From: Haliotis cracherodii
Taxonomy: Eukaryota
DNA: 64,000 nucleotides
Reading direction: 5' to 3'
Assembly (NCBI RefSeq): GCF_022045235.1
Contig: NW_027266286.1
Location: 20,336,001 to 20,400,000 of the forward strand
Shown in pieces: positions 7,001 through 64,000 of this stretch. How positions within the stretch are numbered: the stretch's first letter is position 1; every line of letters starts with the position of its first letter. The notes beneath the pieces were generated by a model that did not search any database, was not told the DNA's origin, and worked only from the letters and a program-made list of their open reading frames with translations. The translations under genes were made by a program, and so were the position numbers.

Positions 7001-10000
7001 ATATAAAATTAGGGAAATGGACAAGGCGTAACTCAAATAAAGCAATAACTTAATAAGTAGAAATAAGTAGAAATAGTGAATACATGTATATACATCTTAA
7101 TATAATAATATCAATATTGTACAGAATTCATTATAGTACACTTCATATATACAGCTGATATTTTCTAACAAATAAATAAAAAGTTATTTTAGAAGTGGAT
7201 ACATATAAGTAAAAATATATAGGGGGAAATGTAAATAAAATCTATTATCTCAAAAGTGGGTGGATGTTATGTTCAAATGAATTTAGGATACAGGTAGAGT
7301 GAGTGAGTGAGTTTTTTACGCCGCTTTTAGCAATATTCAAGCAATTTCACGGCAGGGGACACCAGAAATAGGCTTCACACATTGTACCCATGTCGGGAAT
7401 CAAACCCAGGTCTTCGGCGTGACGAGCGAACGCTTTAACCACTAGACTACCCGACCGCCCCGGGTACAGGTGGAAACAGACAGAGTGATGTAACAGCTCA
7501 GTAAGGGTTAAACTATGTGTAAAGCATGCACTAGGAACCTAACAGTCTTTACGACATTTCATGTCAACTGGCAGGTTTGAGGGTTCCCCAAATTCTTGTG
7601 ATACTGACGACCAATGAAGGCCATGTTAAGAGTCATCCAATCACAGCCTACGAGAAGTCTGCCACTGCCGTTTTGGTAGACAGAGGCCTGTCACATGATG
7701 AGCAGTGATTGTCCCCAGGGCGTCAAGTCAACAGGGTTTACTGTAGATGAATACCGTATTCGACGTAATAAGCGCCAAGGGCGCTCTCAAAATTATAAAT
7801 AGAGGGTCTCATTAGAATATTATTTTTGTGAAAAAAACACAGTTGAAATATAAATTTTGTGGTTTATGATGACAGCCTGAAATGTTTATGTACGACTGAT
7901 ATATTTTTCCAGAATTTAATTGCCCATAATTGAAGGTACATATTACGCACGAGTGTGTATTATACGTAAATAAATAAGTCTTGTGTACATTAATCAATCC
8001 GAAGGGGTGCTAATTGGGATTGTTCACTAGCCAATATATTAGCAAAAATATTGTCGTGGGCGCTTATTAGAGCGGGACGCTTATTACGTTGAATACAGTA
8101 TACAACATGATGTGATGGATATGTGAGCACGAGGAGTGCACCCTGGAATGTAATCATAATGAAGACTGACACAACAACTGACATCAAATCTAGTACAGAT
8201 TTTGATATGTTATTGTATTCACAATATTTAATACCTGTATTATAGGAGGTATGGCCATGTTGACCTTGAACAGGGCTCTAGCCATCTTCCCGAGGCAAGA
8301 GAGTTAACTGACTTTGAAAGTCCAGTTTCCACCCTTGCCAAACTAGGCTGGTATTATGGAGTTACATTTTGGCTGGACTAACGAGTCTATGCATAGCCCA
8401 ATCAAAATCGCGCACTGAAATCAAAATCCAGTTCATAAACTGTCGTGCAGATTTCGGCTGATTGCAGGATTTGCAAAGCATGTGCACCGCCAACTCGTTG
8501 TCAGCAGATATTTTCCAAATCTTTTCATGTTGTAAATCAAGGTGCTCACATGATTTGATGCAATTCGCGATGTAAGACCCGTTTTATCACAATATAGATC
8601 TTGATTATCGATCAGATCCTCCTGACTGGGCACCACCATTTTGTGTGAAGCAAACACAAGTGATACGAGAAGTGGAATCTGATTGCTCCATAGGACAGGT
8701 TTAGAAGGGACATAATTGGTAATAGCCACTTGTGGCGCGACGATCGAGCCCAGGAATTCCAGCTAAGTTCGGCAAGGGTGGTGAATGAAACGTGAAATGA
8801 GCGATAAAACATCACTAGACCTGCTAAACATGATGATCTACAATTTTGTCGTATTTCCTGTTGTGCCAGAGACTAAGATTACCGTGTGTATTTGTTTTAA
8901 AAATAAGCTGGTAATAGCAATCAGCTGTACACTCTATCATATGTTAACATATTGATCAGAATAGCAAGGCTCAAATGTGAATCATCACACACCATGGCAA
9001 TACTGTCACAATGTTATATCAAATTGGGGTGTAACCATGGCAACACTGTCACAATGTTATATCAATTGGGGTGTAACCATGGCAATACTGTCACAATGTT
9101 ATGGCAATTGTGGTGTAACCATGGCAATACTGTCACAATGTTATGGCAATTGTGGTGTAACCATGGCAATACTGTCACAATGTTATATCAATCATGGTGT
9201 AACCATGGCAATACTGTTACAATGTTATATCAATAATGGTGTTACCTTGGCAATGCTGTCACAATTTTATATCAATCGTGGTGTATCAATGGCAATACTG
9301 TCACAATGTTATATCAATCATGGTGTTACCATGGCAATACTGTCACAATGTTATATCAATCGGGGTGTAACTATGGCAATACTGTCACAATGTTATATCA
9401 ATCATGGTGTAACAATGGCAATACTGTCACAATGTTATATCAATCGCCATGTAACCATGGCAATACTATCACAATAGTTGATCAACTGTGGCAATACTAC
9501 CAAGACTGTATCACATGAAGTTTAACTGCGGTAGTATCACCACTAGCAAGATATTTGTGTAGTTTGTCTGGCAGCATCGCCCTTTGTGACAATGCTCACA
9601 AGTTACAAATGGCACATCGTCTGTTCTTAGGCAGGCCATGTTTGGTACTCTGTCCACTCCCAAGAGCCCGTGTGTAGGTGAAGCACACTCTGTCTGGCCC
9701 GTACTGATCCTGCAGCGCTGTGATGTCCACATCCTCCGTGTACAGCACCTCCACGTGGAGGGTCCGAGTCGTGTGTACCGTCCCTCCCTCTCGGTACAGG
9801 AACGGGTTGTCGTAGGGGTCGAGCTGAAGCAGGGTTGCCTCGCAGAATCTGTCTGTGTCCGATTCTTTTATTGTCATGACAACTGTCACGTAATGAGCTT
9901 TGTAGGTGCAGTAGAAATCCGTGAAATATATATTTGTGTTTGCCGTGAAGAGCGCTTCAACAGGAACATCCAGTCTCCGGTTGCCGTAATAAGAGGAAGT

Positions 10001-13000
10001 GGGAATTCTTCCAGTCATTCTGTCGAGGGAGATACTGAAAAAGAGGCCATCAATGTTGTTGTTGATTGGGGAGTGTGGGTCTCCATTGCGGTCTTTAATG
10101 TATTTCTCCATCAATCCATTCTTGTTTTCCATGATGTCGTCCATTTTGTCTCGTGGCTTGTTTCGGAACATGACCTTCACCTCATGTGTAGATGGAACTG
10201 ATATGAATAACTCGGCCTTTTCCTTCAGTCTCTCCAAGTCATCCTTACTCATCACTGTTAAACATAAATTTTATTCAGGGTTAGAAATTATTCTTCTTTT
10301 TCACATGTCCTTAAAAATGTGTCTGTTACAGTGTTGCCATCTACCTTTTCATACCTCATTCAGGAACCAGTAAATTAGGAACTGTCTTTCTGGACTAGTA
10401 GGGGGCACGGGTGGCCCAGTCGTCTAAGGCGCAGCGATTTGCTGTGCAGAGTTGCGTCCCGTGGACATACCAGAAACCTATGATTGTGGGTTTGAATCCC
10501 GGTTCACCCCGATTATGTTTCTAGGTTTGTCAGCACCATACCAGTGCTCGTGGGTTTCACCGAAGTGGTAAACGTCTGAGACCTGCATCACTTCGGGCTT
10601 TCCTCCCACATTAAGCTGACACACCGTGATATGACTGGAATACTGTTAAAAGCGGCGTTAAACCCAACTCCCTCACTCACTTCTGGACTAGTAAATTAGG
10701 AACTGTCTTTCTGGACTAGTAAATTAGGGACTTGACATTGAAGGATAGGGATTTGTCAAGTAGGGACCATTCATTTAACTAGCTATTTAGAGTCATGGGT
10801 AGTCTGTCTTACAGACCCTGATACAAATATATATCAAATACAGCCCATGCAAGTCTATAATGTTTGGCAAGTCTAGATCACTGCAGTATGAAAATGAAGA
10901 GAGTTACTGGGCTCCTTTTTATTATATTTTTGTTAAGATAACTGAACAACTGTTTTTATGTACGATATGTTCATTTCAGAGACTAGATTTTAGTCTAAGT
11001 CATGGGTGGATGTCGGTGCAATAGAGGACACAATAAATATTTTGCATGCTAAGAGCAAGAGGCTTACAAAAAGACTGTTAATCAAGACTGGTTATCCTCT
11101 GGCAATGATGTTTTATATTTAAAAAAAAAAAATGCAATTTGTTGAAGGGGCATATAACATTAGATAATTGCGAAATGCATAATTCATTATGAATCAAGAG
11201 CATCTGGATGGGCTATGAAAGAGATTTTTCTGATTAGATAAGGTAATCCATTGATGCCTATAATGTTGAGGGGTGGTCGGGTAGCCTAGTGGTTAAAGCG
11301 TTCGCTCGTCATGCCGAAGACCCGGGTTCGATTTCCGACATGGGTACAATGTGTGAAGCCTATTTCTGGTGTCCCCCGCCGTGATATTGCTGGAATATTG
11401 CTAAAAGCGGCGTAAAAACCATACTCACTCACTATAATGTTGATTCAATACCTGAGTTCAGGGTGAAACTTTTAGACTTTTGCTGATAATGATACTGTTT
11501 GTGTCCATCGTGATCCGTCCGTGTCATCTGCAGGAGAACTCCACAATAGGTTTGCCGGGGGGGTAGTGGGAACGGGACCTTCACCCCAGAGGCAGGCATG
11601 GGGGTCTCAAGCAGGTACTGGGTGTCCTCCCGGCACAGGTATATCAGGGTGGTACAGGCATTGGGGAGGCTGCGGTCAGGCAGCAACTTGTAGTCTGCTG
11701 GTGGTGTGTATCGTGAAGAAACTTCAAGATCATCCTGTTGAAGATGAATAAGACTTAATTACATACTATATGAAGATTTGTTATCTGATGAAGATACAAA
11801 CATTTATCTAGCATTCCAAAATGAGTGCCTTTTCGAGTTTTTTAAGTTATGTATTTTATTATTGCATTCAATATACCGATACAGTAATGTGAAACTAAGC
11901 ATTCAAGCCTCCTCTAGTAAACTGGTCCTGTTATCAGTGAAATACAAGTCACCTCTACAAGCCATAAACATTAGTTTTGCTTATATTAAGAGTAAATTGG
12001 TAATTTTGTAAATCCAATTTTAGAAATTTTAATCACAGTTGCTGCAGATTTGGTGCCACAGTATAAATAGGTGAGGTGAAATGGGGTTTAACGTCGCGTC
12101 CAAGATTATTGCACTTATATAGCGGCGTGCATGTGCGTGTGTGTGTGGCTGCGGCTGCTTGTACTAGTCCGGACTGATGCCGATTTATAGTGCTGGCCCA
12201 CTGAGATACCATGCCACAGTTTAACATGAATACCCTACTCAGACACAGTATACTGACTCCGAGCAGACCAGTCCTTGTTTAAGCCCCTTAATGCCGAACG
12301 CCAGACAGGGTAACAACAAGTACCATCTTTTAACATGTTTTGGTATCACGCGGTGGTGGATCAAACCCCGGACCTTCCGCTCTCCGGGCGGACGCTCTAC
12401 CACTAGACCACGGAGGCGGTCCCACAGTATAAATACAATCTGCAGACAGACTGTATATTTTACTTACAGGCCCCAATGATCTAGCTGGAAGTTTGTAGAC
12501 TGTAGTGAAAAACATTATTCACTCTCTTACTGTAACCATGGCAACAGAAATTGCCTCCTTCGGAGCTAAGAGAACCTGCTTACCAGTTTTTGGAAGAACA
12601 TCACACTTTCAAGCGGGATTTTTGTTTTGCTGAGACTGAGTGATACTTCTGTTCCTATAAGAAAAACTTTTTTTATACAGATTCTGGTTTCCATGCATCT
12701 TACATGTACATGTATTATATTCAATTTGATATTTAGTTTTGCAAGTAGTTTCAGGAGGCACTTGCAATTTTAGACTGGGTCCCGTTCCACAAAGCGATCG
12801 TAGTGCAATGACAGTCGTAAGTCTATGTTACAGTATGGGAGTTACGTTCACCTTTGAGCTACAATAGCTTTGTGCTTGTCGTAAGAGGCGACTAACGGGA
12901 TCGGGTAGTCATGGTAGTTGATGCATGTTATCGCATCCCAATTGCGTGGATCGATGCTCATGATGTCAATCATTGGATTGTCTGGTCCAGACTCGATTAT

Positions 13001-16000
13001 TTACAGACCGCCATCATATAGCTGGAATATTGTTGAGGGCGGCGTTAAACAACAAACCAACAAATGCTTTGTGGAATGGACCCCTGAAGTGGGTTTTAGT
13101 ATGGACATGGTTAGGAGGGACAGAAATATATCAACCTGTGCATGAGGAAACTCTGCCAGAGTTCACAACTTGAAACATGCGAAGAGTTTGTCGGACATCT
13201 GGCACTGTCAGCCCATACACCAACACATGAGGTCTCTCGTCATCTATTTGATCAAGTGTCAGTTCTCTTGTAGCCAGATCTTCAACAAGGTACACGCCAT
13301 GAAGTGTAGAGAATGGATTGACAATGAACACAATAAGATGTGAAACTTGGTCCTCGCTCCAGGACACTGTCAGTTTCACAGTACGTGTTTCAGTCGTCAA
13401 GGAAAACGTGAAAGATTTACCCTGAAAGAGAAATCAAAACAGTTGACAGGTCAGCCTGACACTACTGACATACACTACTGCTTGGTATACTTGCCACTTG
13501 CAGTCTTGCCCCCTGTGCATGTACTGATAATTGATCAGTTTTGATTATTGATTAGTATCGATTGCTGATCAGTATTGATTAGTATTGACTGCTGATTGTT
13601 ATTGATCAGTATTGATTGCTGATCGGTATTGATTATTGATCAGTATTGATTATTGATTAGTATTGATTGCTGATCACTATTGATATTGATCAGTATTGAT
13701 TATTGATTAGTATTGATTGCTGATCAGTATTGATTATTGATTAGTATTGATTGCTGATCAATATTGATTATTGATTAGTAATGATTGCTGATCAGTATTG
13801 ATTATTGATTAGTACTGATTGCTGATCAGTATTGATTATAGATCAGCATTGATAATTGATTAGTACTGATTGCTAATCAATATTGATTATTGATCAGTAT
13901 TGATTATTGATTCTAATCAATTAATGCAAAAATGTCAACAGTGAGACATAATTGGATTTTCTTCAGGGCAAATCATATTTGCATGGCTTCAGATAATTTT
14001 TTAACCATTGATTATATATTCCCATGTTATGAATCACTTTGGGTATTCATAATTTTTCTTTCGGTAATCAGTATATAATATTTTCCCAGGAAACCCCTCT
14101 ATTAGGTTTTTTAAGACATTTGTTTAAGAATATGTCTGCTTAAAATGATACTTCAGTTAACTCCTTATTCGACCTGTTCATGTGCTGTGTCGAATTGTGA
14201 AGATCCGGGGTAGAATAGGTCTTCAGCAACCCATGCTTGCCATAAAAGGCGACTATGCTTGTCTTAAGAGGTGACTAACAGGATCGGTAGGTCAGGCTCG
14301 CTGACTTGGTTGATACATGTCATCGATCCCAATTGCGTTGATCGATGCTCATGATGTTAATCACTGGATTGTCTGGTCCAGACTCGATTATTTCACAGAC
14401 TGCCGTCATATAGCTGGAATATTGCTGAGTACGGCGTTAAAAAACCAAACAAACAATTCCAGGTATGTCAATTGTCACTGAGCTCACAACAGAGATATTT
14501 TATACATGTCTAACCTACAGTAGGGATGCAGTAGTGAATTAACTGTAGTGGAATTCATGTATAGACGATGCCAGCATTTGATCAGTAAAATCTGTGAACA
14601 AACACAGGTATGCAGACTAAAACACCTACACTAGGCAAGTACACACACTGCTGTTACACTGCAACTATTGTTGTTGTTTTTTAGGTGAGGTGAAATATGC
14701 ACTAGCACTCCAACACTAGCACTCCAACACTAGCACTCCAACACTCCTACACTAGCACTCCAACACTAGCACTCCAACACTCCAACACTAGCACTCCAAC
14801 ACAAGCACTCCAACGCTCCAACACTAGCACTCCAACACTAGCACTCCAACACTAGCACTCCAACACAAGCACTCCAACACAAGCACTCCAACACTAGCAC
14901 TCCAACACAAGCACTCCAACACTCCTACACTAGCACTTCAACACTAGCACTCCAACACTAGCACTCCAACACTAGCACTCCAACACTCCAACACTAGCAC
15001 TCCAACACAAGCACTCCAACACTCCAACACTAACACTCCAACACTAGCACTCCAACACTAGAACTCCAACACTAGAACTCCAACACTAGCACTGTACTTA
15101 CACTGTCCGACATGCTGAATCGCAACTCTGAGCAAGTCCCACAACCAGTGTTAGGCAGCTATTGACTTGGAGTATGTGTTTATCGGATGTAGATCCCAAA
15201 AGTGGGAGGCATACGTTGTAAATCCTATTGCCTAATGTCCAGTTCCCAATCCAAGTGTCATGTGTTAACAATGTTGGATTATTGGGTTAGCAGATATTTT
15301 TGTCTTTCCTCGTAACGTATGTTGATTTCCTAGATGTTTATTAATAGCTCCAGCTTAAACAGAAAGTAGAAAATTGATCAGCTTCAAAAGCGTCACTCTA
15401 GCTATTAATGTCAGTTGACATAGAGGTAATAACTATCTGGCAATAAAGGCTACTGAAACAGACTCTCAGTTCTGTCAATGTCTGTCCAATTTGGTGCCCA
15501 AAAAAATTTTATGAAAAAGGTTTAGGGAGTTTGCTTACACTACAGTAATGAAAAGTGTAAATATGAAAAATCAGAAAAGTGCTTTAAAAAAAGCATATGA
15601 CTGATATTGCCACCACTAAAATATTAAAAAGTTATTTTTTGAATATTATTTTTTACCTTTTGATTATTTTTCGGCGCTACTTTAAGCTCACAGTAAATGT
15701 GACTCCTATTCCATCTGTCTCCTAATGCATTATGATAAATGTTTAATCCATTGCTGCAGTGTAATATCAATAAAGGATTGTACACTGTGCAGACATTGTG
15801 TCATTTCCAGGTAAGCATGTTGATTTCCTAGAAGTCTAGAAATAGTTCAGCACAAAGCAAATTGAAAGTGAAAGTAACATTTGATTAAGAAAGAGCTGAT
15901 CAACATGATCAAGGTATGTTGATATGGAGGTTGTTGATTGTGTTATCTGGCTGCAGCAGCAACTGTAAAACAGGCACATGATACTGCTTCAGTGCAAATC

Positions 16001-19000
16001 TTTTTTTTTAAATATTTACAGATTTTTCCAACCCTACAGTAATGAAATTTGGAAAAAAAGTAAAACCTGAAAAGTTCTATTTTAAGCTTACTTTGATATC
16101 ATGGTCATGTCACTGTGAAAGCCATTTTGAAAATGTCAAATGTCATTTTTTTCAATACCTCAGACACTTTGCATGTGTCACTATTTAATTTGATATGCAG
16201 TATGTGATATGCATAAAAACATTTTTTAAATAAATTGTAAGCATGGTAAGTGATCAGTATTGATTATTGATTAGTATTGATTGCTGATCAGTATTGATTA
16301 TTGATCAGTATTGATTATTGATTGCTGATCAGTATTGATTATTGATTAGTATTGATTGCTGATCAGTATTGATTATTGAATAGTACTGATTGCTGATCAA
16401 TATTGATTATTGATCAGTATTGATTATTGATTCTTATCAATTAATGCAAAAATGTCAACAGTGAGACATAATTGGATTTTCTTCAGGGCAAATCATATTT
16501 GCATGGCTTCAGATAATTTTTTAACCATTGATTATATACTCCCATGTTATCAATCACTTTGGGTATTTATAGTTTTCTTTCGGTAATCAATATATAATTT
16601 TTTCCCAGAAAACCCCTCTATTAGGTTTTTTAAGACATTTGTTTTAGAATATGTCTGCTTAAAATGATACTTTAGTTAACTCCTAATTCGCACCTGTTCA
16701 TGTGGTGTGTCGAATTATGAAGATCCGGGGTAGAATAGGTCTTCAGCAACCCATGCTTGCCGTAAAAGGCGACTATGCTTGTCTTAAGAGATGACTAACA
16801 GGATCGGTAGGTCAGGCTCGCTGACTTGGTTGATACATGTCATCGATCCCAATTGCGTTGATCGATGCTCATGATGTTAATCACTGGATTGTCTGGTCCA
16901 GACTCGATTATTTCACAGACTGCCGTCATATAGCTGGAATATTGCTGAGTACGGCGTTAAAAAACAAACAAACAAATCCAGGTGTGTCACTTGTCACTGA
17001 GCTCACAACATAGATATTTTATACATGTCTAACCTACAGTAGGCATGCAGTAGTGAATTAACTGTAGTGGAATTCATGTATAGACGATGCCAGCATTTGA
17101 TCAGTAAAATCTGTGAACAAACACAGGTATGCAGACTAAAACACCTACACTAGGCAAGTACACACACTGCTGTTACACTGCAACTATTGTTGTTGTTTTT
17201 TAGGTGAGGTGAAATATGATTTGACAAAGATCATTGCAATTCTATAGTGATGTGCATGCATGTGTGTCTGTGTGTGGCTGCTTGTATTCGTCCAGACCAA
17301 TGCCGATTTTACCAAGTGCGGTGTTAATATGTCCGGTTCTGGGACGCAAACCCATTGACCATTGTCTCCTACTCTGATGACAGGATAATTCAAGGTTAAA
17401 AGTGGTCCCCTGGTGGGTTCCGGTATTTGCTTGAATATTCTGATTTAAAAAAATGTATTCTTGCTCATAAAAATATGAGATACAATATTTCTATTATTGT
17501 TTTTAAAATGAAATAAATATGAAATTATTTTTAGAAATACCTTGCATATAGAAAATAGAATATGTTAAACAAATGTCCCACATCTGAGATCAAGTGCTCT
17601 AGCACTCTAAAACTAGCGCTCCAACACTAGCAGTCCAACACTAGAACTCCAACACTAGTGCTCTAACACTAGTGCTCCAACACTAGTACTCCAACACAAG
17701 AACTCCAACACTAGCACTCCAACTCCAACAGTAGCACTCCAACACTAGCACTCCAACACATGCACTCCAACACTAGAACTCCAACACTAGCACTGTACTT
17801 ACACTGTCCGACATGCTGAATCGCAACTCTGAGCAAGTCCCACAACCAGTGTTAGGCAGCTATTGACTTGGAGTATGTGTTTATCGGATGTAGATCCCAA
17901 AAGTGGGAGACATACGTTGTAAATCCTTTTGCCTAATGTCTAGTTCCCAATCCAAAGTCAAGTGTCATGTATTAACAACATTGGATCATTCAGTAAGCAG
18001 CTACTTTTGTCTTTCCTCGTAACGTATGTCCATTTCCTAGATGTATATAAATAGCTCCAGCTCAAACAGAAAGTAGAAAATTGATCAGCTTCAAAAGCAT
18101 TACTCTAGCTATCATTGTCAGTTGACATAGAGGTAATAACGTTCTGGCAATAAAGGCTACTGAAACAGACACTCAGTTCTGTCAATGTCTGTCCAATTTG
18201 GTGCCCAAAAATTTTTTTATGAAAAAGGTTTAGGGAGTTTGCTTTCACTACAGTAATGAAAAGTGTAAATATGAAATATCAGAAAAGTGCTTAAAAAAGC
18301 ATATGACTGATATTGCCACCACTAAAATATTAAAAATTATTTTTTGAATATTATTTTTTACCTTTTGATTATTTTTCGGCGCTACTTTAAGCTCACAGTA
18401 AATGTGACTCCTATTCCATCTGTCTCCTAATGCATTATGATAAATGTTTAATCCATTGCTGCAGTGTAATATCAATAAAGGATTGTACACTGTGCAGACA
18501 TTGTGTCATTTCCAGGTAAGCATGTTGATTTCCTAGAAGTCTAGAAATAGTTCAGCACAAAGCAAATTGAAAGTGAAAGTAACATTTGATTAAGAAAGAG
18601 CTGATCAAGGTATGTTGATATGGAGGTGGTTGATTGTGTTATCTGGCTGCAGCAGCAACTGTAAAACAGGCACATGATACTGCTTCAGTGCAAATCTTTT
18701 TTTTTAAATATTTACAGATTTTTCCAACACTACAGTAATGAAATTTGGAAAAAAAGTAAAACCTGAAAAGTTCTATTTTAAGCTTACTTTGATATCATGG
18801 TCATGTCACCGTGAAAGCCATTTTGAAAATGTCAAATGTCATTTTTTTCAATACCTCAGACACTTTGCATGTGTCACTATTTAATTTGATATGCAGTATG
18901 TGATATGCATAAAAACATTTTTTAAATAAATTGTAAGCATGGTAAGTGATCAGTATTGATTATTGATTAGTATTGATTGCTGACCATATTGATTATTGAT

Positions 19001-22000
19001 TGCTGATCAGTATTGATTATTGATTAGTATTGATTGCTGATCAGTATTGATTATTGAATAGTACTGATTGCTGATCAATATTGATTATTGATCAGTATTG
19101 ATTATTGATTCTTATCAATTAATGCAAAAATGTCAACAGTGAGACATAATTGGATTTTCTTCAGGGCAAATCATATTTGCATGGCTTCAGATAATTTTTT
19201 AACCATTGATTATATATTCCCATGTTATCAATCACTTTGGGTATTCATAATTTTTCTTTCGGTAATCAATATATAATTTTTTCCCAGAAAACCCCTCTAT
19301 TAGGTTTTTTAAGACATTTGTTTTAGAATATGTCTGCTTAAAATGATACTTCAGTTAACTCCTAATTCGCACCTGTTCATGTGCTGTGTCGAATTGTGAA
19401 GATCCGGGGTAGAATAGGTCTTCAGCAACCCATGCTTGCCGTAAAAGGTGACTATGCTTGTCTTAAGAGATGACTAACAGGATCGGTAGGTCAGGCTCGC
19501 TGACTTGGTTGATACATGTCATCGATCCCAATTGCGTTGATCGATGCTCATGATGTTAATCACTGGATTGTCTGGTCCAGACTCGATTATTTCACAGACT
19601 GCCGTCATATAGCTGGAATATTGCTGAGTACAGTGTTAAAAAACAAACAAACAAATCCAGGTGTGTCACTTGTCACTGAGCTCACAACATAGATATTTTA
19701 TACATGTCTAACCTACAGTAGGGATGCAGTAGTGAATTAACTGTAGTGGAATTCATGTATAGACGATGCCAGCATTTGATCAGTAAAATCTGTGAACAAA
19801 CACAGGTATGCAGACTAAAACACCTACACTAGGCAAGTACACACACTGCTGTTACACTGCAACTATTGTTGTTGTTTTTTAGGTGAGGTGAAATATGATT
19901 TGACAAAGATCATGGCAATTCTATAGTGATGTGCATGCATGTGTGTCTGTGTGTGGCTGCTTGTATTCGTCCAGACCAATGCCGATTTTACCAAGTGCGG
20001 TGTTAATATGTCCGGTTCTGGGACGCAAACCCATTGACCATTGTCTCCTACTCTGATGACAGGATAATTCAAGGTTAAAAGTGGTCCCCTGGTGGGTTCC
20101 GGTATTTGCTTGAATATTCTGATTTAAAAAAATGTATTCTTGCTCATAAAAATATGAGATACAATATTTCTTTTATTGTTTTTAAAATGAAATAAATATG
20201 AAATTATTTTTAGAAATACCTTGCATATAGAAAATAGAATATGTTAAACAAATGTCCCACATCTGAGATCAAGTGCTCTAGCACTCTAAAACTAGCGCTC
20301 CAACACTAGCACTCCAACACTAGTGCTCTAACACTAGCGCTCCAACACTAGTACTCCAACACAAGAACTCCAACACTAGCACTCCAACTCCAACAGTAGC
20401 ACTCCAACACTAGCACTCCAACACTAGCACTCCAACACATGCACTCCAACACTAGCACTGTACTTACACTGTCCGACATGCTGAATCTCAACTCTGAGCA
20501 AGTCCCACAACCAGTGTTAGGCAGCCATAGACATGGAGTATGTGTTTATCGGATGTAGATCCCAAAAGTGGGAGACATACGTTGTAAATCCTTTTGCCTA
20601 ATGTCTAGTTCCCAATCCAAAGTCAAGTGTCATGTATTAACAACATTGGATCATTCAGTAAGCAGCTACTTTTGTCTTTCCTCGTAACGTATGTCCATTT
20701 CCTAGATGTATATTAATAGCTCCAGCTCAAACAGAAAGTGCTTAAAAAAGCATATGACTGATATTGCCACCACTAAAATATTAAAAATTATTTTTTGAAT
20801 ATTATTTTTTACCTTTTGATTATTTTTCGGCACTACTTTAAGCCCACAGTAAATGTGACTCCTATTCCGTCTGTCTCCTAATGCATTATGATAAATGTTT
20901 AATCCATTGCTGCAGTGTAATATCAATAAAGGATTGTACACTGTGCAGACATTGTGTCATTTCCAGGTAAGCATGTTGATTTCCTAGAAGTCTAGAAATA
21001 GTTCAGCACAAAGCAAATTGAAAGTGAAAGTAACATTTGATTAAGAAAGAGCTGATCAAGGTATGTTGATATGGAGGTGGTTGATTGTGTTATCTGGCTG
21101 CAGCAGCAACTGAAACACAGGCACATGATACTGCTTCAGTGCAAATCTTTTTTAAATATTTACAGATTTTTCCAACACTACAGTAATGAAATTTGGAAAA
21201 AAGTAAAACCTGAAAAGTTCTATTTTAAGCTTACTTTGATATCATGGTCATGTCACTGTGAAAGCCATTTTGAAAATGTCAAATGTCATTTTTTTCAATA
21301 CCTCAGACACTTTGCATGTGTCACTATTTAATTTGATATGCAGTATGTGATATGCATAAAAACATTTTTTAAATAAATTGTAAGCATGGTAAGTGATCAG
21401 TATTGATTATTGATTAGTACTGATTGCTGATCAGTATTGATTATTGATCAGTATTGATTATTGATTGCTGATCAGTATTGATTATTGATTAGTATTGATT
21501 GCTGATCAGCATTGATAATTGATTAGTACTGATTGCTGATCAATATTGATTATTGATCAGTATTGATTATTGATTCGTATCAATTAATGCAAAAATGTCA
21601 ACAGTGAGACAGAATTGGATTTTCTTCAGGGCAAATCATATTTGCATGGCTTCAGATAATTGGCATTTTATATATAATTATGATTAGGCCACGCCCACTA
21701 ATGGACTACTCTTTCCTGATTGGCTGATAAAAGAATGGGCAGGGCTTGTTAAATAAGCACTCTGTGAAGATATTGTTGACATATTCACAGTCAAACACTG
21801 TTGTGTCAAACTTTGATATGTCAAACTTACAAATGTCTCGAAGTAAGCTTGGTCCCTGCGTACTCCTTTATTAATCATTATTTAACCTCCGATGTGTCAA
21901 ATCTGATGTGACAAAGTTGTCTCGATTATATTTTCCAGTCCCAAACATGTTCAGTAAACTACGGTTATAACAAACTCAAAGGGACCACTAATTTTTGTTC

Positions 22001-25000: not shown

Positions 25001-28000
25001 CAATTGCGTAGATCGAGGCTCATGATGTTAATATAGTTGGTCATATAGTTAGTATATTGCTAAGTATGGCGTTAAACAACAAATAAAACAAAAGTTATTT
25101 CATTTATTCTAATTTAAAACAATGATGTGTTGAAAGGTTGCTGTGTAATGTATGATTTTCCTATTCTCATTCATCATGAATCATCAATTAATTATTGATT
25201 ACAAGCCAATGAATTCCCAATACCAATAGACACCAAGTGATAGAGCAAAAAGAATCTTTCTAAATAATTTGCTGTCTAGAGTTACTTCCCCTAAGCGTGC
25301 CAGGAACCTTTGATCACAAGTTTCGCTTAATATGAACATTGGTAAATGTCTAGGACCAGTATCACTTTCCTCCCCTGCTCAGCTGAAATGATGTGATGTA
25401 ACTGAAATACTCACTCACTCTGTCAGATGTCCTGATGATTGCAGGACAAATAGGACCCAGTTGTCCTGCTTCTAGTAAGGGCCCTCTTAATAAGAGATCA
25501 GGTGGCTGCTTGTCAAAGTACCCAGACTTGATTATTTCCTGTCCGGGTCTGGAATAGTGTGCACAGAGGCATTAAACAACATTCACTCACTCACTCACTC
25601 ATTGTGACATAACTTCTGGTTGCAGGTCCACGACTTGGGTCATCACCAGTACGGAGCATCGTCCAATGCCTGGCCAGGAAGGAAGACACAGACGAGTTCT
25701 ACACCATCAAGGTTAGGGTCAGATCTTGTGCTGTGTCACCGATAGAAGTAGCCGTAAACATCTAAGGCAACATTCTTGTGCTGTGTCACCAATAGAAGTA
25801 ACCGTAAACATGTAAGGCAACGTTCTTGTGCTTTGTTACTGATAGAAGTAACTGTAAACATGTAAGGCAACGTTCTTGTGCTGTGTCAGTGATAGAAGTA
25901 ACTGTAAACATGTAAGGCAACATTCTTGTGCTGTGTCAGCCATAGAAGTAACCGTAAACATGTAAGACAACGTTCTTGTGCTGTGTCACCGATAGAAGTA
26001 ACTGTAAACATGTAAGACAACGCTCCTGTGCTGTGTCACCGATAGAAGTAACTGTAAACATGTAAGGCAACGTTCTTGTGCTGTGTCACCGATAGAAGTA
26101 ACCGTAAACATGTAAGACAACGTTCTTGTGCTGTGTCAGCGATAGAAGTAACTGTAAACATGTAAGGCAACATTCTTGTGCTGTGTCAGCGATAGAAGTA
26201 ACTGTAAACATGTAAGACAATGTTCTTGTGCTGTGTCACCGATAGAAGTCACCGTAAACATGTAAGGCAACATTCTTGTGCTGTGTCACCGATAGAAGTC
26301 ACCGTAAACATGTAAGGCAACGTTCTTGTGCTGTGTCACCGATAGAAGTAACTGTAAACATGTAAGGCAACGTTCTTGTGCTGTGTCACCGATAGAAGTA
26401 ACTGTAAACATGTAAGGCACCGTTCTTGTGCTGTGTCAGCCATAGAAGTAACTGTAAACATCTAAGACAACATTCTTGTGCTGTGTCAGTGATAGAAGTA
26501 ACTGTAAACATGTAAGACAACGTTCTTGTGCTGTGTCACCGATAGAAGTAACCGTAAACATGTAAGGCAACGTTCTTGTGCTGTGTCACCGATAGAAGTC
26601 ACCGTAAACATGTAAGGCACCGTTCTTGTGCTGTGTCAGTGATAGAAGTAACTGTAAACATCTAAGACAACATTCTTGTGCTGTGTCAGTGATAGAAGTA
26701 ACTGTAAACATGTAAGACAACGTTCTTGTGCTGTGTCACCGATAGAAGTAACTGTAAACATGTAAGGCAACGTTCTTGTGCTGTGTCACCGATAGAAGTA
26801 ACTGTAAACATGTAAGGCAACATTCTTGTGCTGTGTCACCGATAGAAGTAACCGTAAACATGTAAGGCAACATTCTTGTGCTGTGTCAGCGATAGAAGTC
26901 ACTGTAAACATCTAAGGCAACGTTCTTGTGCATGTTGGCTAGTGCTCTCCTAAGGCCATGATGGCCTTGTACAACAAACATTGATAATGTGATGTATAAT
27001 ATGTTGAGAAACACTAGGAGGAACATGCCTCACAATGCATCCTCTGAAGGGCAGTTGGGGGACCAAGTGTTTGCTTGTCACGACGAAGGTCCATGTTCAA
27101 TTCCCAACATGCCTACAATGTGAAGCCCATTTATAGTGTCCCCTGCCATGACATTGCTAGAATATTGTTAAAAGCAGCCCAAGACCCAACTAACTCACTG
27201 AAGGCAAACCTTTTTGGAACTGTATAACCACAAGACTTTTATTTTCTGTCAGTTTAAAGGGAAAATATGTTCCATTGTATTGTTCCCATTTCTAGTCTCG
27301 ATATGGATGCTGTGATTAGTGCCATGTTTGAATTGTAGCCATTTGATAACTGTAAGTAAGATAATATATATCTGTTCAAGTGATGTGCATCATGAAATTT
27401 AGGTGATGAACTATTAACATTTGAACACTTAAATCAAACATGCTAGGATTGCCAATAACCCTACAGCCTAGTTGAGCTTTAGTCATGCTGATGGTGCTTA
27501 CACTTTTGTATTTTTGTGTTTGTGATATAGTTTGTGTTTTCCAGATCCTGACAATGGAGGACCCTGAGAAGGAGAGCCAGGACGACCGCCAGGGAAAGAT
27601 GTTGATGCACACGGAGTACTCGCTGTTGTCCCTGCTGCACCAGCAAGATGGCGTTGTCCACCACCACGGGCTCTTCAAGGTGCTCACTCCAGCCTCACCC
27701 TGTCTACTGTACTGCCTGACCCTGTCTACTGTACTGCTTCACCCTGTCTACTGTACTGCCTCACCCTGTCTACTGTACTGCCTGACCCTGTCTTCACTCC
27801 TGCCTTACCCTGTCTACTGTACTGCTTCACCCTGTCTACTGTACTGCCTGACCCTGTCTTCACTCCTGCCTTACCCTGTCTACTGTACTGTTTCACCCTG
27901 TCTACTGTACTGTCTCACCCCGTCTACACTCCTGCCTCACCCCGTCTACACTCCTGCCTCACCCTGTCTACACTCCTGTCTCACCCTGTCTACTGTACTG

Positions 28001-36178: not shown

Positions 36179-37321
36179 CAGTCAAGTCTCGTTAATCCGA
36201 CACTCGTTAATCCGACACTCGGCTTTATCCGACACAAATGATGGGAACCGATTGATTCAGTGCTATTTAGTCCCGTTAATCCGACATTCTCGCACTCCGA
36301 CTCCGACACACCTAATTTGCAACGAATTACCGAAATCACTCATTAATCAGTCTCGTTAATCCGACACAGTGGTCAGCGTACTCCGTGGTCATCTGACCGC
36401 GAGTACACAACCCCGTGTTTTGACACGCACTGGCTGCAGAGATTAACTTAACAATTAACAGGAAAAGCTATTCAAACCTGTATGTACAAAGCTATACAAA
36501 TGTAGTTTACAAATTGAAGCCAGATAAATGTGCATGAAGCCAGTTTAAAATACGAACAGGTATATAAAACATGGTCGACTCACCATGGTCGACTGGTATG
36601 TAAACAAGAAAGCATGGATGACTTCATTAATATTCAAAGCCTGGCTACTGATCTTGGATTGGCAAATGCGATTGGAGCAACGCCACGTGGTATTGCTGTT
36701 GGACAACGCCCCATCCCATGCTACTGTCGACATAACTAATGTGAAATGTCACTTTTTGCCACCAAACACTACATCGCACATTCAGCCACTAGATGCCGGG
36801 ATCATTAAGAATTTCAAGCTTTATTATAAGAAACAGCAAATGAAATTACACCTCGACAATGTTGATGCTGAAGAACCACAAGCCCTAGACGTCAAGCGAG
36901 CAGGGGACTTGGGGGAGAAATGTGCCTTCAAAATGTTAGAAACAGAAAACACTAACAGACTATTTTAAGTAGATGAAGCAAGTTGTTAAGACAGTAGCAC
37001 TTTCATTTACAAGAGGAAACGTGTGTCGTTGATCATGTGATATATTCAGTGAGTAATGTCTCTATTGTTATGTATAAATGGGAAAATTATTATTATTTTT
37101 GCACAGTCATTAATTATAAATTAAGGAATGAATGAATAAACGACATAACAATATTAATATTTCGTTTTTAATGATTTTATTACAAGGTACACACGGTTAT
37201 TATCTATCGTGAAGACGCCCGTTTTTCGATCACAAATCACTTAATTTCGTTAATCCGACATACTCGTTAATCCGACACAATCATGTGCAACCAACGATGT
37301 CGGATTAACGAGACTTGACTG
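36179..37321 (+). mobile_element. Internally deleted pogo/Tigger (Tc1/mariner superfamily) DNA transposon
   Basis: 24-nt TIRs cagtcaagtctcgttaatccgaca / tgtcggattaacgagacttgactg, TA TSDs, and subterminal gttaatccgaca repeats. Confidence 0.95.
36585..36968 (+). pseudogene. DDE_1 (CENP-B/pogo) transposase fragment
   Basis: NKKAWMT, LLLDNAPSH, FLPPNTTSHIQPLDAGII motifs; HTH region absent. Confidence 0.92.
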
Positions 37322-38959: not shown

Positions 38960-38967
38960 GTGTTGTG

Positions 38968-47879: not shown

Positions 47880-48260
47880 TAAGACCTGCAAGTGAAGCGT
47901 AATCTGCACATCGTACAGGAAAACCAATAACAAAACGGCTAATGCATTCATTGGCGTACAGCATTAATAAAATGGGCGGGATGGCACAACCTTGTAGGGC
48001 CCCTGTAGAAGCGCGAACAAGTTGAACGGGTCCCATTTAGGGCGATGGACTGTGTTGACAATAAAACATTTGACCCATTTGAAAATACGTGAGTTAACAC
48101 CCATCTTTGTCAGCTTTTGCATAACAAAGTGAGGCTGAATAATATTAGAAGCGGATGAACAATCGACGCACACTCTCATTTTATACGATTTACTGTTATC
48201 TAGATAGTTATAAATTTTATGCAGTAGAGTATGTGTTGCGTCGGACTACATGCTCCTGAA
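47880..48260 (-). mobile_element. Highly decayed LINE RT fragment
   Basis: VDCSSASNIIQPHFVMQKL resembles FVDFSSAFNTIQP. Confidence 0.55.
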
Positions 48261-51921: not shown

Positions 51922-52009
51922 CTCCTTGTTGTCTATCCTTTCTCTTTCTTTGTGTCTAGTTTTCTTCTTCGTGTTTATCCTTTGCACCTTGTTGTCTATA
52001 CGTTTCCCG

Positions 52010-54527: not shown

Positions 54528-57392
54528 TTAACTAACAATTCTGTTTCTATGTGACATAGCGTGATAAACATATGTTGCCAGGTTACATAACATAGTATCA
54601 TTAGATGAAGTTAAAAGATCTACAAACTTATGGTCATTCGGGTGTACAGAGTAGAAAGATGGCAAATATTTATCACGTAAATGTTTGTAAGCTTGACATA
54701 CCAGGAGAAAGTGAAACTCATCTTCAATTGAATTTGTGTTACACGTGCATATTCTGTCTCTTCTATCAGTGTGATTATATCTACCAGTCTCTATATACAG
54801 GTTGTGAGTGGAACATCTAAATCGTGCTTGTGCAATTCTAATTTTTTTAAACTCAAGTTTACAGAGGTACGCCTCAATTTCAATATTACTTTTCATGATT
54901 CTATAATATAAACATTTATTTGATTTGGACATTAATTCTAACCATTTCTGCAAATACATATCTTTTAGGCTCTGGGGGAAGGACATTAAAAAGAGCGGTT
55001 CTGATTCTACACACTGATTATACCACACATAATTTAAACCCGTAATAAATAATTATTATTTTACGTTTGTTACCCAATTTCGTTTTCCAGTACTGTCGTA
55101 GATGTTTAACATATCATAGCACTTCCTAGGGTTTCTATCATTAGTAATGTTTATCAAGCGAATCCAGTATTTAATCACTTTTAAGTAGGATTGAATATAC
55201 AGCGGATATCGTCCCGTTTCTCCATATACCATTATGCTGGACGTACTATTTTTAACTCCTACATATATAATTCTTGCAAACAAACAAATGTACTTATTTA
55301 ATTTGATCATGAATTTTTATACCCCAGACTTCAGCACCATAGTGTAGTATTGGAATTATCTTTGTATCAAAAAGTTTAAAATATGATCTAAATGAGATGT
55401 CTCTTAGAAATGGAGACTGTCTATGAAGATGTGGTTTCCAAAATTTCTCCATTGTGAAACCGTTTTTCAATTGATGCTAGTTTTCCCCCATTTTTGAAGA
55501 CTATAACTTTTGTTTTTTCTCTATTTACAACTAAGTTTGATTCTTTACAGAATTTTTCAAGTTCATTAATTTGCCTTTGCAAACCAATCACTGTCGTGGA
55601 GAAATGTATGACATCATCTGCGAAAAGCAACAGAAATAATTCCGTAAGATCTGGATGTAACTGTATACCATGGGAGCAATTTTCTTGTTTTTGAGTAGCT
55701 AATTCATTAATGAAAAAAGAAAATTGAAACGGACTCATTATACAGCCTTGTCTAACACCTAAATCAATAGTAAAACTTTCTGACAGTTTGTTATTATTTC
55801 TCACGCAGGCTTTGACATTGGTGTATATACTTCTCAAAAGATTACTCATTTTCAAGCTAATTCCGTGCGATTCTAACAGTGTCCATAGTTTTGTTCTATC
55901 TTCTCTGTCAAACGCCTTTGAAAAATCAACGAAAAGTGCATAAAATGTTCCACCTCTTTTACTAAGTATTTCTCTATGAGCCTCTGTAGTGTAAAAATAG
56001 TATCGATGGTAGAATATCCCTGTCGAAAACCAGCTTGTGCTTCACTAATTTTCTGCCCAATTCTGTAATCTTTTATTTATAATGTATATGAACAATTTAC
56101 TAAAGACGCTTAAAAGTGTTATACCTCGGTAGTTATTGGTATTGTTAATATCACCATGTTTATGGATGGGGACAATTATGCCAAACGTCCATGATTCGGG
56201 GAAATTCCCACCCTGTAGAATATGATTAAAAACAAATGATAAATATGGTATTATGATATCTGCACAGTGTTTGAACAATTCCGGTAGCATTTTGTCAATT
56301 TCCGATTTATTGTTTTTCAAATTATCTATGCTATTCATTATTTCCTGAAAAGAAATTGGAGAATCTAAAATGTCAGTTACGACATCATCGATTTCACGAA
56401 TTCGGTCACACTCTGTAGTATGTACATGGTCTATATCCATATCATTTCTATTTGATTCGAAAAGAGTTTTACAGTGAGAAACCCATTCACCTGTGCTGAT
56501 ATCATTCCCTTGGGAATATTTTCCTCTAAGTTTTCTTAATATTGACCAGAACTGGGTTGGGTCATCTATACTGTTTGCTGAGAGTATCCTTTGTTTTTGG
56601 AGGTAGTTATTTCGTTTTTGTCTACAAATGGCATTGTACTTATTTCTTGCTGCATTATAAAGTTGTAATGAATCCCTGTCTTTAAGTTGTCTAAACCTAT
56701 TTAAGTTCTTACACCTCTGTCGTTTCAATTCTTCACATTCTCTATCAAACCACTTATTAACCCTTTCCGAGTAATTTGAACTTTTAACTTTCCTTTTCAT
56801 TTAAAGGCAGCTTTTGAGATTGCCTGAACTATACAATCGATACTCTTATTAATATTGACGGACACTTCTTCCTGTGACATGTTTAGCACAGTCTGTACCT
56901 CATCTGTAAGTAAATTTTCTCTGAAAGTTTCACAGTGCTGGACATCCCAAACAAACTTATGAGAAACGCTATCACTACGAGAACTATTGTTGCTACATGG
57001 GTGAGGATGAAGCGTCCGTAAAGTCACAGAAACTGGAAGATGTGGAGTCAGCACGTGATGAAGTCTCGAAATCAGCTACATAGTCAAATATAAAAGATGA
57101 TGCAATTACATAGTCCACAAGACTGGCACCGAGTGATCCAATAAATGTGTAATCTCCACGTCCTGGGGGGCGGTCGGGTAGGCTAGTGGTTGAAGCGTTT
57201 GCTCGTCACGCCGAAGACCTGGGTTCGATTCCCGACATGGGTACAATGTGTGAAGCCCATTTCAGGTGTCCACCGCCGTGATATTGCTGGAAAATTGCTT
57301 AAAGCAGCGTAAAACCATACTTACTCACTCCACGTCCTGAGTCTGATCCACATCTCACATTCATGATATGTACATTGAAAATTGAACACAAA
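54528..57392 (-). mobile_element. Decayed non-LTR retrotransposon (LINE) ORF2, multiple frameshifts; clade uncertain (RTE-X/Proto2- or CR1/L2-group-like)
   Basis: APE remnant (YTFIGSLGASLVDY, HLPVSV), NYRGITLLSVFSKLF, FVDFSKAFD, GVRQGCIMSP, LLFADD, and C-terminal HNLYIETGRY...EDEFHFLLVC. Confidence 0.93.
57165..57327 (+). mobile_element. SINE family B inserted into the LINE
   Basis: TSD ctccacgtcctg; LINE sequence continues on both sides. Confidence 0.93.
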
Positions 57393-57419
57393 TCTAGTAA
57401 AGATCTACCAAAGGCATTA

Positions 57420-59135: not shown

Positions 59136-59313
59136 GTCACCAGAGCTTTTAAGTTACACAAAGGTCAGAGGCTATTTTTTCAATAGGATTATTTTGCCAG
59201 CGACGTTTCTATTGGAACATACTAATCATTTAGTAGCATGTGGACTTGCTCGGGATAGGCCAGCTATTGTTGTTGAGGGTGTATGACAGACTAACGTGGT
59301 TCATTAACTTCAG

Positions 59314-60096
59314 TTCCGGATGGACAAGGCAAAGGACCAACACTCATTGAAGCTGCTGCGTGTGGCCGAGGACTTCTGCCAGGGACAGATGGTGACAACA
59401 ATCACTCATCTATATCGGAACAAATCTCGGGAGTACTTCGATCAAGTCCTGAACAAGGAAGATGGCCTGATGTTGCCCTACAAGAAAGACAACGGGGGCG
59501 ACCCATCCTGCCCCATCAACGGCAGATTGAAGGGACTGTTCTTTGCCGCTACGTTGGTGCAGGGGAGAATTCCAGAGGCATCGCCATTCGGAAATACTCG
59601 GTTGACGCTTCCAGTGGAAGAGCTGATTGGACCAGACACGAACCTTTACTTCGCCGATTTCTTCTGCATGCCTATAATGTCAATAAATAATAACCACTAC
59701 ATTGTACTGGTGGTGACGAAGCAGGGATCACCCTCCGACCTGTTCTGCAACACAATTCTCCCTCAAATCAACATCAATAACAACTTATTCCTAACACGGA
59801 GAGACGGGCCAAATGGACCTTCTTTTACAATACCTTTCAAAACAGGGTTTGATCACGACGGGCGGCCTCACAAGTTGTGGATCGAGGTAATGTACACCGA
59901 GGCCATTGATATGGCGAACATGCTAATCAAATATGGCGATGCCATAGTAACAACGTGTAGGACATTCGGCGAAGGAAGCAGCAAGAAGGAAACGGGTGTG
60001 AGGAAACATACAAACTGTACAATATGTAGTTATAACCCTTGTGTGAGGTGCATCTGTTGCAAGAGAGTTCTCTCTGGTCGAGATTTTGACTTGTGA
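59314..60096 (+). CDS. PHYHIP-like copy 2 (PHYHIP_C domain exon, in-frame ATG at 59320)
   Basis: 258-aa ORF with LYRNK, PYKKDNGGDPSCPING, GLFFA, SPFGNTR, LYFADFFC, HYIVLV, EVMYTE, CTIC. Possible acceptor cttcag ends at 59313; no upstream exons found. Confidence 0.92.
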   Translation, partial: FRMDKAKDQHSLKLLRVAEDFCQGQMVTTITHLYRNKSREYFDQVLNKEDGLMLPYKKDNGGDPSCPINGRLKGLFFAATLVQGRIPEASPFGNTRLTLPVEELIGPDTNLYFADFFCMPIMSINNNHYIVLVVTKQGSPSDLFCNTILPQININNNLFLTRRDGPNGPSFTIPFKTGFDHDGRPHKLWIEVMYTEAIDMANMLIKYGDAIVTTCRTFGEGSSKKETGVRKHTNCTICSYNPCVRCICCKRVLSGRDFDL

Positions 60097-61734: not shown

Positions 61735-62400
61735 ATGCAATAAGGCTATTATGGACACATGAGTAAGGATGCAATAAGGCTATTAGGGACACATGAGTAA
61801 GGATGCAATAAGGCTATTAGGGACACATGAGTAAGGATGCAATAAGGCTATTAGGGACACATGAGTAAGGATGCAATAAGGCTATTAGGGACATATGAGT
61901 AAGGATGCAATAAGGCTATTAGGGACACATGAGTAAGGATGCAATAAGGCTATTAGGGACACATGAGTAAGGATGCAATAAGGCTATTAGGGACATATGA
62001 GTAAGGATGCAATAAGGCTATTAGGGACACATGAGTAAGGATGCAATAAGGCTATTAGGGACACATGAGTAAGGATGCAATAAGGCTATTAGGGACACAT
62101 GAGTAAGGATGCAATAAGGCTATTAGGGACACATGAGTAAGGATGCAATAAGGCTATTAGGGACATATGAGTAAGGATGCAATAAGGCTATTAGGGACAC
62201 ATGAGTAAGGATGCAATAAGGCTATTAGGGACACATGAGTAAGGATGCAATAAGGCTATTAGGGACACATGAGTAAGGATGCAATAAGGCTATTAGGGAC
62301 ACATGAGTAAGGATGCAATAAGGTTATTAGGGACACATGAGTAAGGATGCAACAAGGCCATTAGGGACACATGAGAAAGGATGCATTTGGGGTATAAGGG
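61735..62400. repeat. 34-nt minisatellite, about 19 copies, with degenerate flanks (61600-62580)
   Basis: Unit ggacacatgagtaaggatgcaataaggctattag. Confidence 0.95.
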
Positions 62401-63423: not shown

Positions 63424-64000
63424 CTACTTGTGCTGTCTTTTTGTCGAGGGCAAACCCAACTGAAGGTTGCACAAATTGCACCTGGTATTCTTTGGAATGC
63501 CCATAATTGAGCTATGTCCTTGCCCAAATGTTTCGACATTTTCAAAATACGCATCATTCCTATGTCTGTCTAACAGCCACCCAATGTCCACATTTTCTGT
63601 GTAAAACACTTCAATATTCAAGCAAACCGAGCATGTGCATGTGAATACCTGCCAACCATACACTGAGTTTTCTTTATACAGGAAGGGGTTGTTGAAAGGA
63701 TTAAGCTGACGCAAGCATGTCTGACAAAACACATCTGCATCTGAACCCTTCCTTGTCATCACTAGTGTGACATAATGAGGACCTCTACTACTGGTGCAGT
63801 AGAAGTCTGTGAAATACAAGCAAGTGTCCATATCGAACAGTACGTCAGCAGGAACGTACAAACGCTTGTCACCAAAGCAGGAAGTTGAAGGTACTTTCCC
63901 TGTCGAAAATTGGACCGATGCACTGAAAAACAAACCATTGAGTTTCCCGTTGATGGGCGATCCCTGGTCTCCATTGTGGTCCTTCAGGTAGGGCTTCATG
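63424..64000 (-). CDS. PHYHIP-like copy 3 (PHYHIP_C domain, 5' end beyond window)
   Basis: MKPYLKDHNGDQGSPINGKLNGLFFS, LYFTDFYC, HYVTLV, EVFYTE, CNLCNL. Confidence 0.93.
   Translation of the reverse strand, partial: MKPYLKDHNGDQGSPINGKLNGLFFSASVQFSTGKVPSTSCFGDKRLYVPADVLFDMDTCLYFTDFYCTSSRGPHYVTLVMTRKGSDADVFCQTCLRQLNPFNNPFLYKENSVYGWQVFTCTCSVCLNIEVFYTENVDIGWLLDRHRNDAYFENVETFGQGHSSIMGIPKNTRCNLCNLQLGLPSTKRQHK

Follow-up and report, generated by a model that had tools for sequence, protein, structure and literature searches.

The PHYHIP_C domain of abalone genes is predicted to be an overlooked ADP-ribosyltransferase with an Arg-Phe-Glu triad

Vertebrates have two genes of the PHYHIP/PHYHIPL (PAHX-AP1) family, PHYHIP and PHYHIPL. 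According to the sections of one report that were accessible to us, both are conserved and brain-enriched, mice with a truncating variant of PHYHIPL have an altered cerebellum, and PHYHIPL is of unknown function, with only a fibronectin-III domain noted in it (PMC7953787). The C-terminal domain of these proteins, PHYHIP_C (Pfam PF19281), is found three times in the stretch of abalone DNA analyzed here, 64,000 nucleotides from Haliotis cracherodii (assembly GCF_022045235.1, contig NW_027266286.1, positions 20,336,001 to 20,400,000 of the forward strand), which we call the window and number from its first letter. The stop-free frames lie at 9596-10270 (minus strand, copy 1), 59308-60096 (plus strand, copy 2) and 63424-64000 (minus strand and open at the window end, copy 3). 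They match the profile with E values of 1.3e-35, 5.9e-38 and 6.9e-36 (123, 131 and 124 bits), above the curated cut-off of 27 bits, so that the three domains listed in a first-pass annotation of the bare sequence all hold and the three genes are members of the PHYHIP family. Structure models suggest that this family is likely an overlooked group of ADP-ribosyltransferases (ARTs), and that its genes probably encode intracellular enzymes that split nicotinamide adenine dinucleotide (NAD+) by means of an Arg-Phe-Glu triad.

The literature that we searched, from which subscription papers and structure-classification databases were out of reach, held no link between PHYHIP and ARTs and no enzymatic function for PHYHIP. 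A Foldseek screen of human AlphaFold models with PARP1, as far as the accessible part of the paper describes it, returned 17 PARPs, LRRC9, TASOR and NEURL4, and not PHYHIP (PMC10450202). PHYHIP is likewise not named in the available portions of PMC9027952, PMC12522546 and PMC11377751, and is absent from the four publications found to list the ART-like domains of LRRC9, TASOR, NEURL4 and TEX15. It is rather unlikely, though far from negligible, that the assignment of PHYHIP_C to the ARTs has already been made elsewhere. An ART fold with named catalytic residues makes the function of PHYHIP and PHYHIPL directly testable.

Two high-confidence models of PHYHIP_C, made independently from domains with 40% mutual identity, were compared with known structures using a full structural aligner. 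Every match listed, 44 of 44 for one model and 43 of 43 for the other, belonged to the ART superfamily; they included CC0527, Tpt1, DarT, CopC, Scabin, pierisin, pertussis S1, PARPs and tankyrases. CC0527, Tpt1 and DarT had the top Z scores, a gap of less than 1 Z counting as a tie and small target size being an advantage, and CopC gave the longest alignments (138 and 134 residues). Foldseek returned nothing at E<=0.001 against the PDB and viral models, and a sequence search of the PDB with the protein and two profiles returned zero matches. The xylanase and immunoglobulin-like matches that Foldseek did offer were set aside as noise, being absent from the rows shown by the full aligner. The cryptic ART fold foreseen by the first-pass annotation held up well in the structure search that it had proposed, with the full aligner though not with Foldseek. 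The fold is visible only to an aligner more sensitive than Foldseek, and the absence of PHYHIP from the PARP1 screen fits the blank Foldseek results obtained here. The low Z scores and the lack of significance in Foldseek and profile comparisons weigh against an ART assignment, and would suit a beta-sheet layout whose likeness to the fold is accidental. Chance matches would be mixed, however, whereas those of two such different models all came from one superfamily, and both catalytic positions (Arg and Glu) fall in register. We regard a coincidental likeness as very improbable, and consider it nearly certain, as far as models can say, that PHYHIP_C contains the split beta-sheet core of the ARTs, strand 1 bearing Arg26 and strand 5 Glu164.

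The register was read by ungapped extension from the first or last aligned residues in 13 chains with catalytic numbers at hand. For PARP1 to PARP3, the tankyrases and pertussis S1 we used what we take to be the catalytic residue numbers. Those of PARP4 (PMC10711553), Scabin (PMC7828395) and DarT (PMC9967889) came from the accessible parts of these papers and those of CopC from its paper. In 11 of the 13 chains Arg26 coincided with the His or Arg of strand 1. In CopC and OspC3, where the alignments begin at a greater distance, it landed on the residue preceding the His, where the Arg is equally conserved, and ten residues off in one CopC alignment. The Glu of the compact paralogue fell exactly on the catalytic Glu in 10 of the 13 chains and one residue off in Scabin, pertussis S1 and DarT. 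The Arg and Glu originally proposed as catalytic therefore line up with their catalytic counterparts on strands 1 and 5. Conservation was counted over 216 aligned PHYHIP_C domains (210 rows at the Arg, 206 at the Glu and 199 for residue combinations). The Arg is invariant (210/210) and directly preceded by Tyr or Phe in 204 of these rows; the Glu occurs in 197 of 206 rows, and Glu or Asp in 202.

The middle residue of the triad is where our reading departs from the first-pass annotation, which had likened the domain to the R-S-E class, with a Ser as its middle residue. The motif blocks that it listed are all present (MFRNK and LYRNK; GLFFSI, GLFFAA and GLFFSAS; HVEV, WIEV and NIEV; DFYC and DFFC; HY; CxxC), and each EV is followed by YTE, as it said, with one residue (L, M or F) between the two blocks. 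Copy 2, however, has Ala at the position of the proposed Ser, and the three copies, called very divergent, share 39%, 50% and 43% identity over 208 to 212 columns. A true R-S-E enzyme of the cholera toxin, pierisin or CARP-1 kind, with Ser69 as its middle residue, would agree with the Arg on strand 1, the Glu on strand 5 and the presence of Scabin, pierisin and pertussis S1 among the structural matches. The F-F-S-x-S of copies 1 and 3 also fits the aromatic-hydrophobic-S-x-S pattern; S-x-S also occurs in 7 of 20 genome paralogues, and 19 of the 20 have Ser or Thr as residue 71. Across the alignment, however, Ser69 is found in only 96 of 216 rows (otherwise Met in 51, Gly in 24 and Ala in 22) and S-x-S in 17 of 199, and the R-S-E combination occurs in 81 of 199 rows against 182 of 199 for R-F-E. 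Strand 2 spans residues 64 to 69 in both models and so ends at the Ser. The Gln or Glu expected two residues before the catalytic Glu is missing as well: the three copies have His, Trp and Asn there, and Trp, Met, His, Arg and Thr are commonest in the 206 rows. In addition, the end offsets are exact for the PARPs and OspC and one off for Scabin and pertussis S1. Although PHYHIP_C shares the fold, the aromatic-Arg of strand 1 and the Glu of strand 5 with the R-S-E clade (Scabin, pierisin, clam CARP-1, pertussis S1 and ART1-5), it lacks the conserved S-T-S and the Q/E-x-E of that clade. Unlike that clade, the closest named relative of copy 1 (P0154, an abalone protein 96% identical to it) has no signal peptide evident by eye. 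Membership of the R-S-E class thus appears quite improbable.

We infer instead that the middle residue is Phe67, two before Ser69, and that the triad is R-F-E. Its register cannot be read from the alignment ends and is placed by other considerations: strand 2 ends where it does; Table 1 of PMC7955679, in the part available, equates S-x-S with Y-x-x and gives YFS for PARP4; the best of 214 ungapped OspC blocks sets Phe67 on the triad Phe of the CopC type; and R-F-E is the combination in 182 of 199 rows. Phe67 itself is kept in 207 of 216 rows and the Gly of G-L-F-F in 214 of 216. Going by alignment ends and strand positions, the three residues would converge on one cleft. A strand-1 Arg next to an aromatic strand 2 is also seen in a subgroup of DarT (31 of 31 rows), which offers a precedent for this pairing; this Arg would correspond to Thermus H13, judging by the H13-I14-T15...N19 pattern given in the accessible part of PMC9967889.

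An R-F-E triad would stand between the classical ART clades. The H-Y-E ARTs (PARP1-4, tankyrases and diphtheria toxin) and DarT match PHYHIP_C in fold; with the PARPs the strand-1 and strand-5 register is exact, and the G-L-F-F-S of PHYHIP_C would fit the H-Y-E pattern G-I-Y-F-A/S with Phe in place of Tyr. PHYHIP_C differs in having Arg for His, in an R-N-K in place of the H-G-S/T (H-x-S/T) motif, in a Cys/His set and a long conserved donor loop not seen in H-Y-E ARTs or DarT, and in the lack of sequence similarity. Members of the H-H-h clade (Tpt1/TRPT1 and CC0527/DUF952), like the ART-like domains of human TASOR, TEX15, LRRC9 and NEURL4, are without the Glu or a full triad, whereas PHYHIP_C has Arg, Phe (or Ser) and Glu in place of the His, His and hydrophobic residue of that clade.

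TASOR and LRRC9 (PMC9027952; PMC10450202, both consulted in part) are precedents for a further possibility, that PHYHIP_C is an ART-fold pseudo-enzyme or a scaffold binding NAD+ or ADP-ribose, in which conserved residues would bind a ligand or partner without turnover. Vertebrate PHYHIP is known only through its binding partners, as far as the accessible part of PMC7953787 goes, and two paralogues (L012 and L013) have Asp for Glu. Pseudo-ARTs usually lose the triad, however, while PHYHIP_C keeps its Arg and acidic residue at the frequencies given above together with an invariant polar shell, across 24 genome matches and several phyla. We consider a pseudo-enzyme unlikely. Because the catalytic residues and the further shell are near-invariant from molluscs to nematodes, the enzyme is probably active.

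The chemistry common to ARTs, as set out in the accessible parts of PMC8883491, PMC8120803 and PMC7955679, is the basis of the NAD+ site that we propose. NAD+ would lie in the cleft between the half-sheets, with Arg26 holding its pyrophosphate side and Phe67 and Phe/Tyr85 stacking the nicotinamide, while Glu164 would hold the ribose 2'-OH and stabilize the oxocarbenium ion as in other ARTs. By analogy with these enzymes, this placement of NAD+ and of the four residues is quite probable. The further near-invariant shell (Lys28, Lys49, Asp50, Asp54, Asn60, Ser83, Arg89 and Asp108) would likely form the acceptor site. The full reading, that PHYHIP_C is an active, unrecognized animal ART family with an Arg-Phe-Glu triad and a zinc-pinned tail, that the two human proteins, PHYHIP and PHYHIPL, are mono-ADP-ribosyltransferases enriched in brain that consume NAD+ and are missing from the lists of PARPs and ecto-ARTs, and that the invertebrate arrays carry swapped targeting modules, has in our estimate a probability of about 0.5 on the present models. 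Its extension to human PHYHIP and PHYHIPL rests on Pfam homology.

As to the acceptor, we suggest tentatively that it is a protein, which PHYHIP_C would mono-ADP-ribosylate and which the beta-rich module at the N terminus (of fibronectin-III type in vertebrates) would select; paralogues with a different module or none would therefore have different targets. A beta-rich N-terminal region precedes the domain in copy 1, as in the PHYHIP family at large. This 220-residue region is common to 34 of 82 relatives with a long N terminus and has zero matches in Pfam and the PDB. Of the other relatives scanned, 39 in number, 3 scored weakly for fn3, the sole recurring extra domain. The main alternative at this step, a variant of the same reading, is an active ART with a nucleic-acid or phosphate acceptor, like DarT or Tpt1. 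The top Z scores of CC0527, Tpt1 and DarT speak for it, as do five near-invariant basic residues (Arg26, Lys28, Lys49, Arg89 and Lys205), one of which, Lys49, would by its spacing lie in the loop of the DarT catalytic R51 (PMC9967889, consulted in part), and the order S-P, Y/V-F-T-D, E, which by eye resembles that of DarT. These top scores are tied, however, and favor small targets; a profile link to DarT is absent, and none of the 39 relatives scanned carries a nucleic-acid-binding domain. We hold such an acceptor to be unlikely, if less so than a pseudo-enzyme.

The longest structural alignments being those with CopC, we also considered whether PHYHIP_C is an animal counterpart of the OspC/CopC ADP-riboxanases or of SopF, modifying arginine by means of two aspartates. 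CopC has a Phe in its triad, a second Phe and two essential aspartates, D172 and D230. PHYHIP_C would likewise have a Phe in its triad, and it has two conserved aspartates, Asp54 (191/216) and Asp108 (214/216), at like spacing, residues 85 and 108 lying 23 apart as do F207 and D230. The strand-1 and strand-2 blocks each ranked first of 214 against the OspC profile. OspC clusters also topped the language-model search for copy 1, although they came 29th of 30 for copy 2, with low recognition scores in both. On the other side, profile-profile comparisons with OspC (57 rows) and DarT (31 rows) were not significant, and strand 1 carries Arg rather than His, the register being ambiguous by one residue so that Arg or Asn stands at the place of the His. 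The His of the E-x-H of OspC and CopC is lacking; the residue two after the Glu is Phe in 120, Leu in 62 and Tyr in 15 of 206 rows. C-terminal ankyrin repeats and PF06128 gave zero matches in the three copies and the 39 relatives, and no calmodulin-binding helices were seen, no test being aimed at them. That PHYHIP_C is a counterpart of these enzymes remains a lead, though an improbable one, and it is slightly more improbable still that animals have in this domain their first known OspC/CopC-type enzyme, with ADP-riboxanated arginine as its product.

The first-pass annotation had also proposed a zinc site of the C/H/C/C type. Cys111, His116, Cys209 and Cys212 are all kept in 194 of 199 rows, the first two sitting across a hairpin turn and the last two in the C-terminal tail, which is modeled with a predicted local distance difference test score of 95 to 96. 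Conservation, the sole basis of this proposal, thus upholds it, and the four residues probably bind a structural zinc that pins the tail; Cys133, however, is conserved on a par with them (214/216) and is an alternative ligand. In the structural alignments, tail residues 195-214 (model mf9c551c09f66) are matched to the C-terminal segments of pertussis S1, CARDS and EcPltA. Such segments can block the active site, and the Cys-bearing tail of PHYHIP_C may be a lid.

The last exon of copy 1 (9596..10254, minus strand) holds the whole PHYHIP_C domain by Pfam, structure model and fold search, with a splice acceptor AG at 10255 and a joint to the upstream exon seen in a contig. Counting residues from base 10240, the codons are Arg26 at 10163-10165, Asp54 at 10079-10081, Phe67 at 10040-10042, Ser69 at 10034-10036, Tyr85 at 9986-9988, Asp108 at 9917-9919, Cys111 at 9908-9910, His116 at 9893-9895, Glu164 at 9749-9751, Cys209 at 9614-9616 and Cys212 at 9605-9607. 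At least three coding exons lie upstream on the same strand, in frame and with GT and AG ends. That at 11452..11734, found by tblastn with P0154 and P0002, encodes the second half of the N-terminal region and is joined to the last exon in contig X8 record 24. A 71-base linker exon at 12584..12654 was placed by tblastn, splice ends and frame; in contig X6 record 21 the two flanking exons stand 66 letters apart. The exon at 13136..13421 (tblastn, splice ends and contig cover) encodes the first half of the N-terminal region and opens at a splice acceptor; the exon with the start codon was not found. The exon joints, with introns skipped, come from contigs of two public runs of a close relative, which are presumed to be RNA, their type being guessed. 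Directly upstream, 13721-21661 is filled by about three repeats of a unit of about 2.7 kb at 95-97% identity, which may hold or disturb the start exon.

Copy 2 (59320..60096, plus strand) is a single-frame gene of 258 residues that consists of PHYHIP_C and a Cys-rich tail, as indicated by frame, Pfam and the relative P0134 (258 amino acids, 97% identical), whose cluster contains a named abalone protein of 257 residues. Read cover is short and shallow, in two of four runs, and speaks neither for nor against expression; none of the runs containing the sequences is catalogued as RNA. Its codons are Arg 59416-59418, Phe 59539-59541, Asp 59656-59658, Cys 59665-59667, His 59695-59697, Glu 59884-59886, Cys 60016-60018 and Cys 60025-60027. 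Past the conserved CxxC, 60031-60093 encodes extra Cys in a C-x-x-C-x-C-C run that is also present in P0134. The domain exon of copy 3 (63424..64000, minus strand; frame, Pfam, locus L001 and P0003, 87% identical) is cut by the window end and extends about 140 bases past it, with a further exon some 540-740 bases past the window. Its codons are Phe 63928-63930, Asp 63805-63807, Cys 63796-63798, His 63775-63777, Glu 63610-63612, Cys 63478-63480 and Cys 63469-63471, and its Arg, within FYRNK of L001, lies 51-53 bases outside the window end.

Of 26 candidates in a search of the abalone's own genome, 24 scored above the cut-off, a lower bound; 21 of the 24 share the contig of the window, where they are clustered as 10, 5, 3, 2 and 1, and 3 of the 24 contain stops. 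In contrast to the vertebrate pair of genes, the domain sits in one exon and follows either the mollusc-type 220-residue N-terminal region or none, so that the local expansion and varied N termini proposed earlier are real. Contrary to what had been supposed, the family is not lineage specific: it has the domain of vertebrate PHYHIP, and a second protein search named further relatives from mussels, another snail, a limpet, a leech and nematodes. The first protein search gave 599 relatives at E<=0.001, of which the best 150 were examined. In a tree of 20 paralogues, from which 4 of the 24 matches were omitted as broken or partial and in which copy 3 is represented by 169 residues, copies 1 and 3 group together and copy 2, which has a long branch, belongs to a separate clade (support 100/98 for both clades); the three copies are therefore not a recent triplet.

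Alongside this genome-wide count, the proposed comparison of replacement with silent substitution rates (dN/dS) was run, the window copies themselves being too far apart for it. The ratio was 0.32-0.79 in 11 of 13 paralogue pairs with measurable silent distance, and selection is mostly purifying. The defence role put forward in the first-pass annotation is no more than a possibility. General positive selection was rejected, only two pairs standing out: L012/L013, with 13 replacement and 0 silent differences (P ~0.03, uncorrected), and L014/L022, with a ratio of 1.49 but an L022 start out of register. The expansion in molluscs offers natural variants for a study of acceptor choice. L012 and L013 (G000:C23, ~71.62-71.63 Mb), with Asp in the place of the catalytic Glu, have acidic, Tyr-rich tails. 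The largest genome cluster has its 10 matches on one strand within 84 kb (G000:C23:71591615-71675192). One relative, P0026 (427 residues), has two tandem PHYHIP_C domains, the first without the C-terminal Cys pair.

In a subgroup made up of loci L067-L093, PHYHIP_C stands alone in a single-exon gene and residue 69 is Met; many variants of it occur on gene-poor metagenome contigs. These 27 loci have 0-65% of their contigs in long frames against 65-100% for 5 bacterial loci; being gene-poor, they are likely animal DNA, and the subgroup suggests a second expansion in another animal group. Zero PHYHIP_C domains were found in 14 control genomes, the alignment scan excluding the prokaryotic genome collection, so that the family may still be of bacterial origin, and 145 pattern matches in viral contigs yielded 0 confirmed relatives. 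The best viral fold match was the pithovirus protein A0A481ZDK8 (E 0.026, probability 0.91, TM score 0.33). Giant-virus DUF5846 clusters were present in both language-model searches, and other atlas clusters were DUF5863 and DUF3841; together with the pithovirus protein, these may be further unrecognized ART-like families.

Between copies 1 and 2 lies a multi-exon, protein-kinase-like gene (about 27476-35928, plus strand), with a Pkinase match at 32968-33219 (E 1.5e-7) just under the cut-off; it may resemble STK40. The remaining features that we noted are pieces of mobile elements at 54528-57075 (minus strand), 47964-48245 (minus strand) and 36549-36968 (plus strand), comprising broken reverse-transcriptase pieces of long interspersed nuclear elements (RVT_1, E 4e-23 and 4e-4) along with one fragment of a DDE_1 transposase (E 2e-25).

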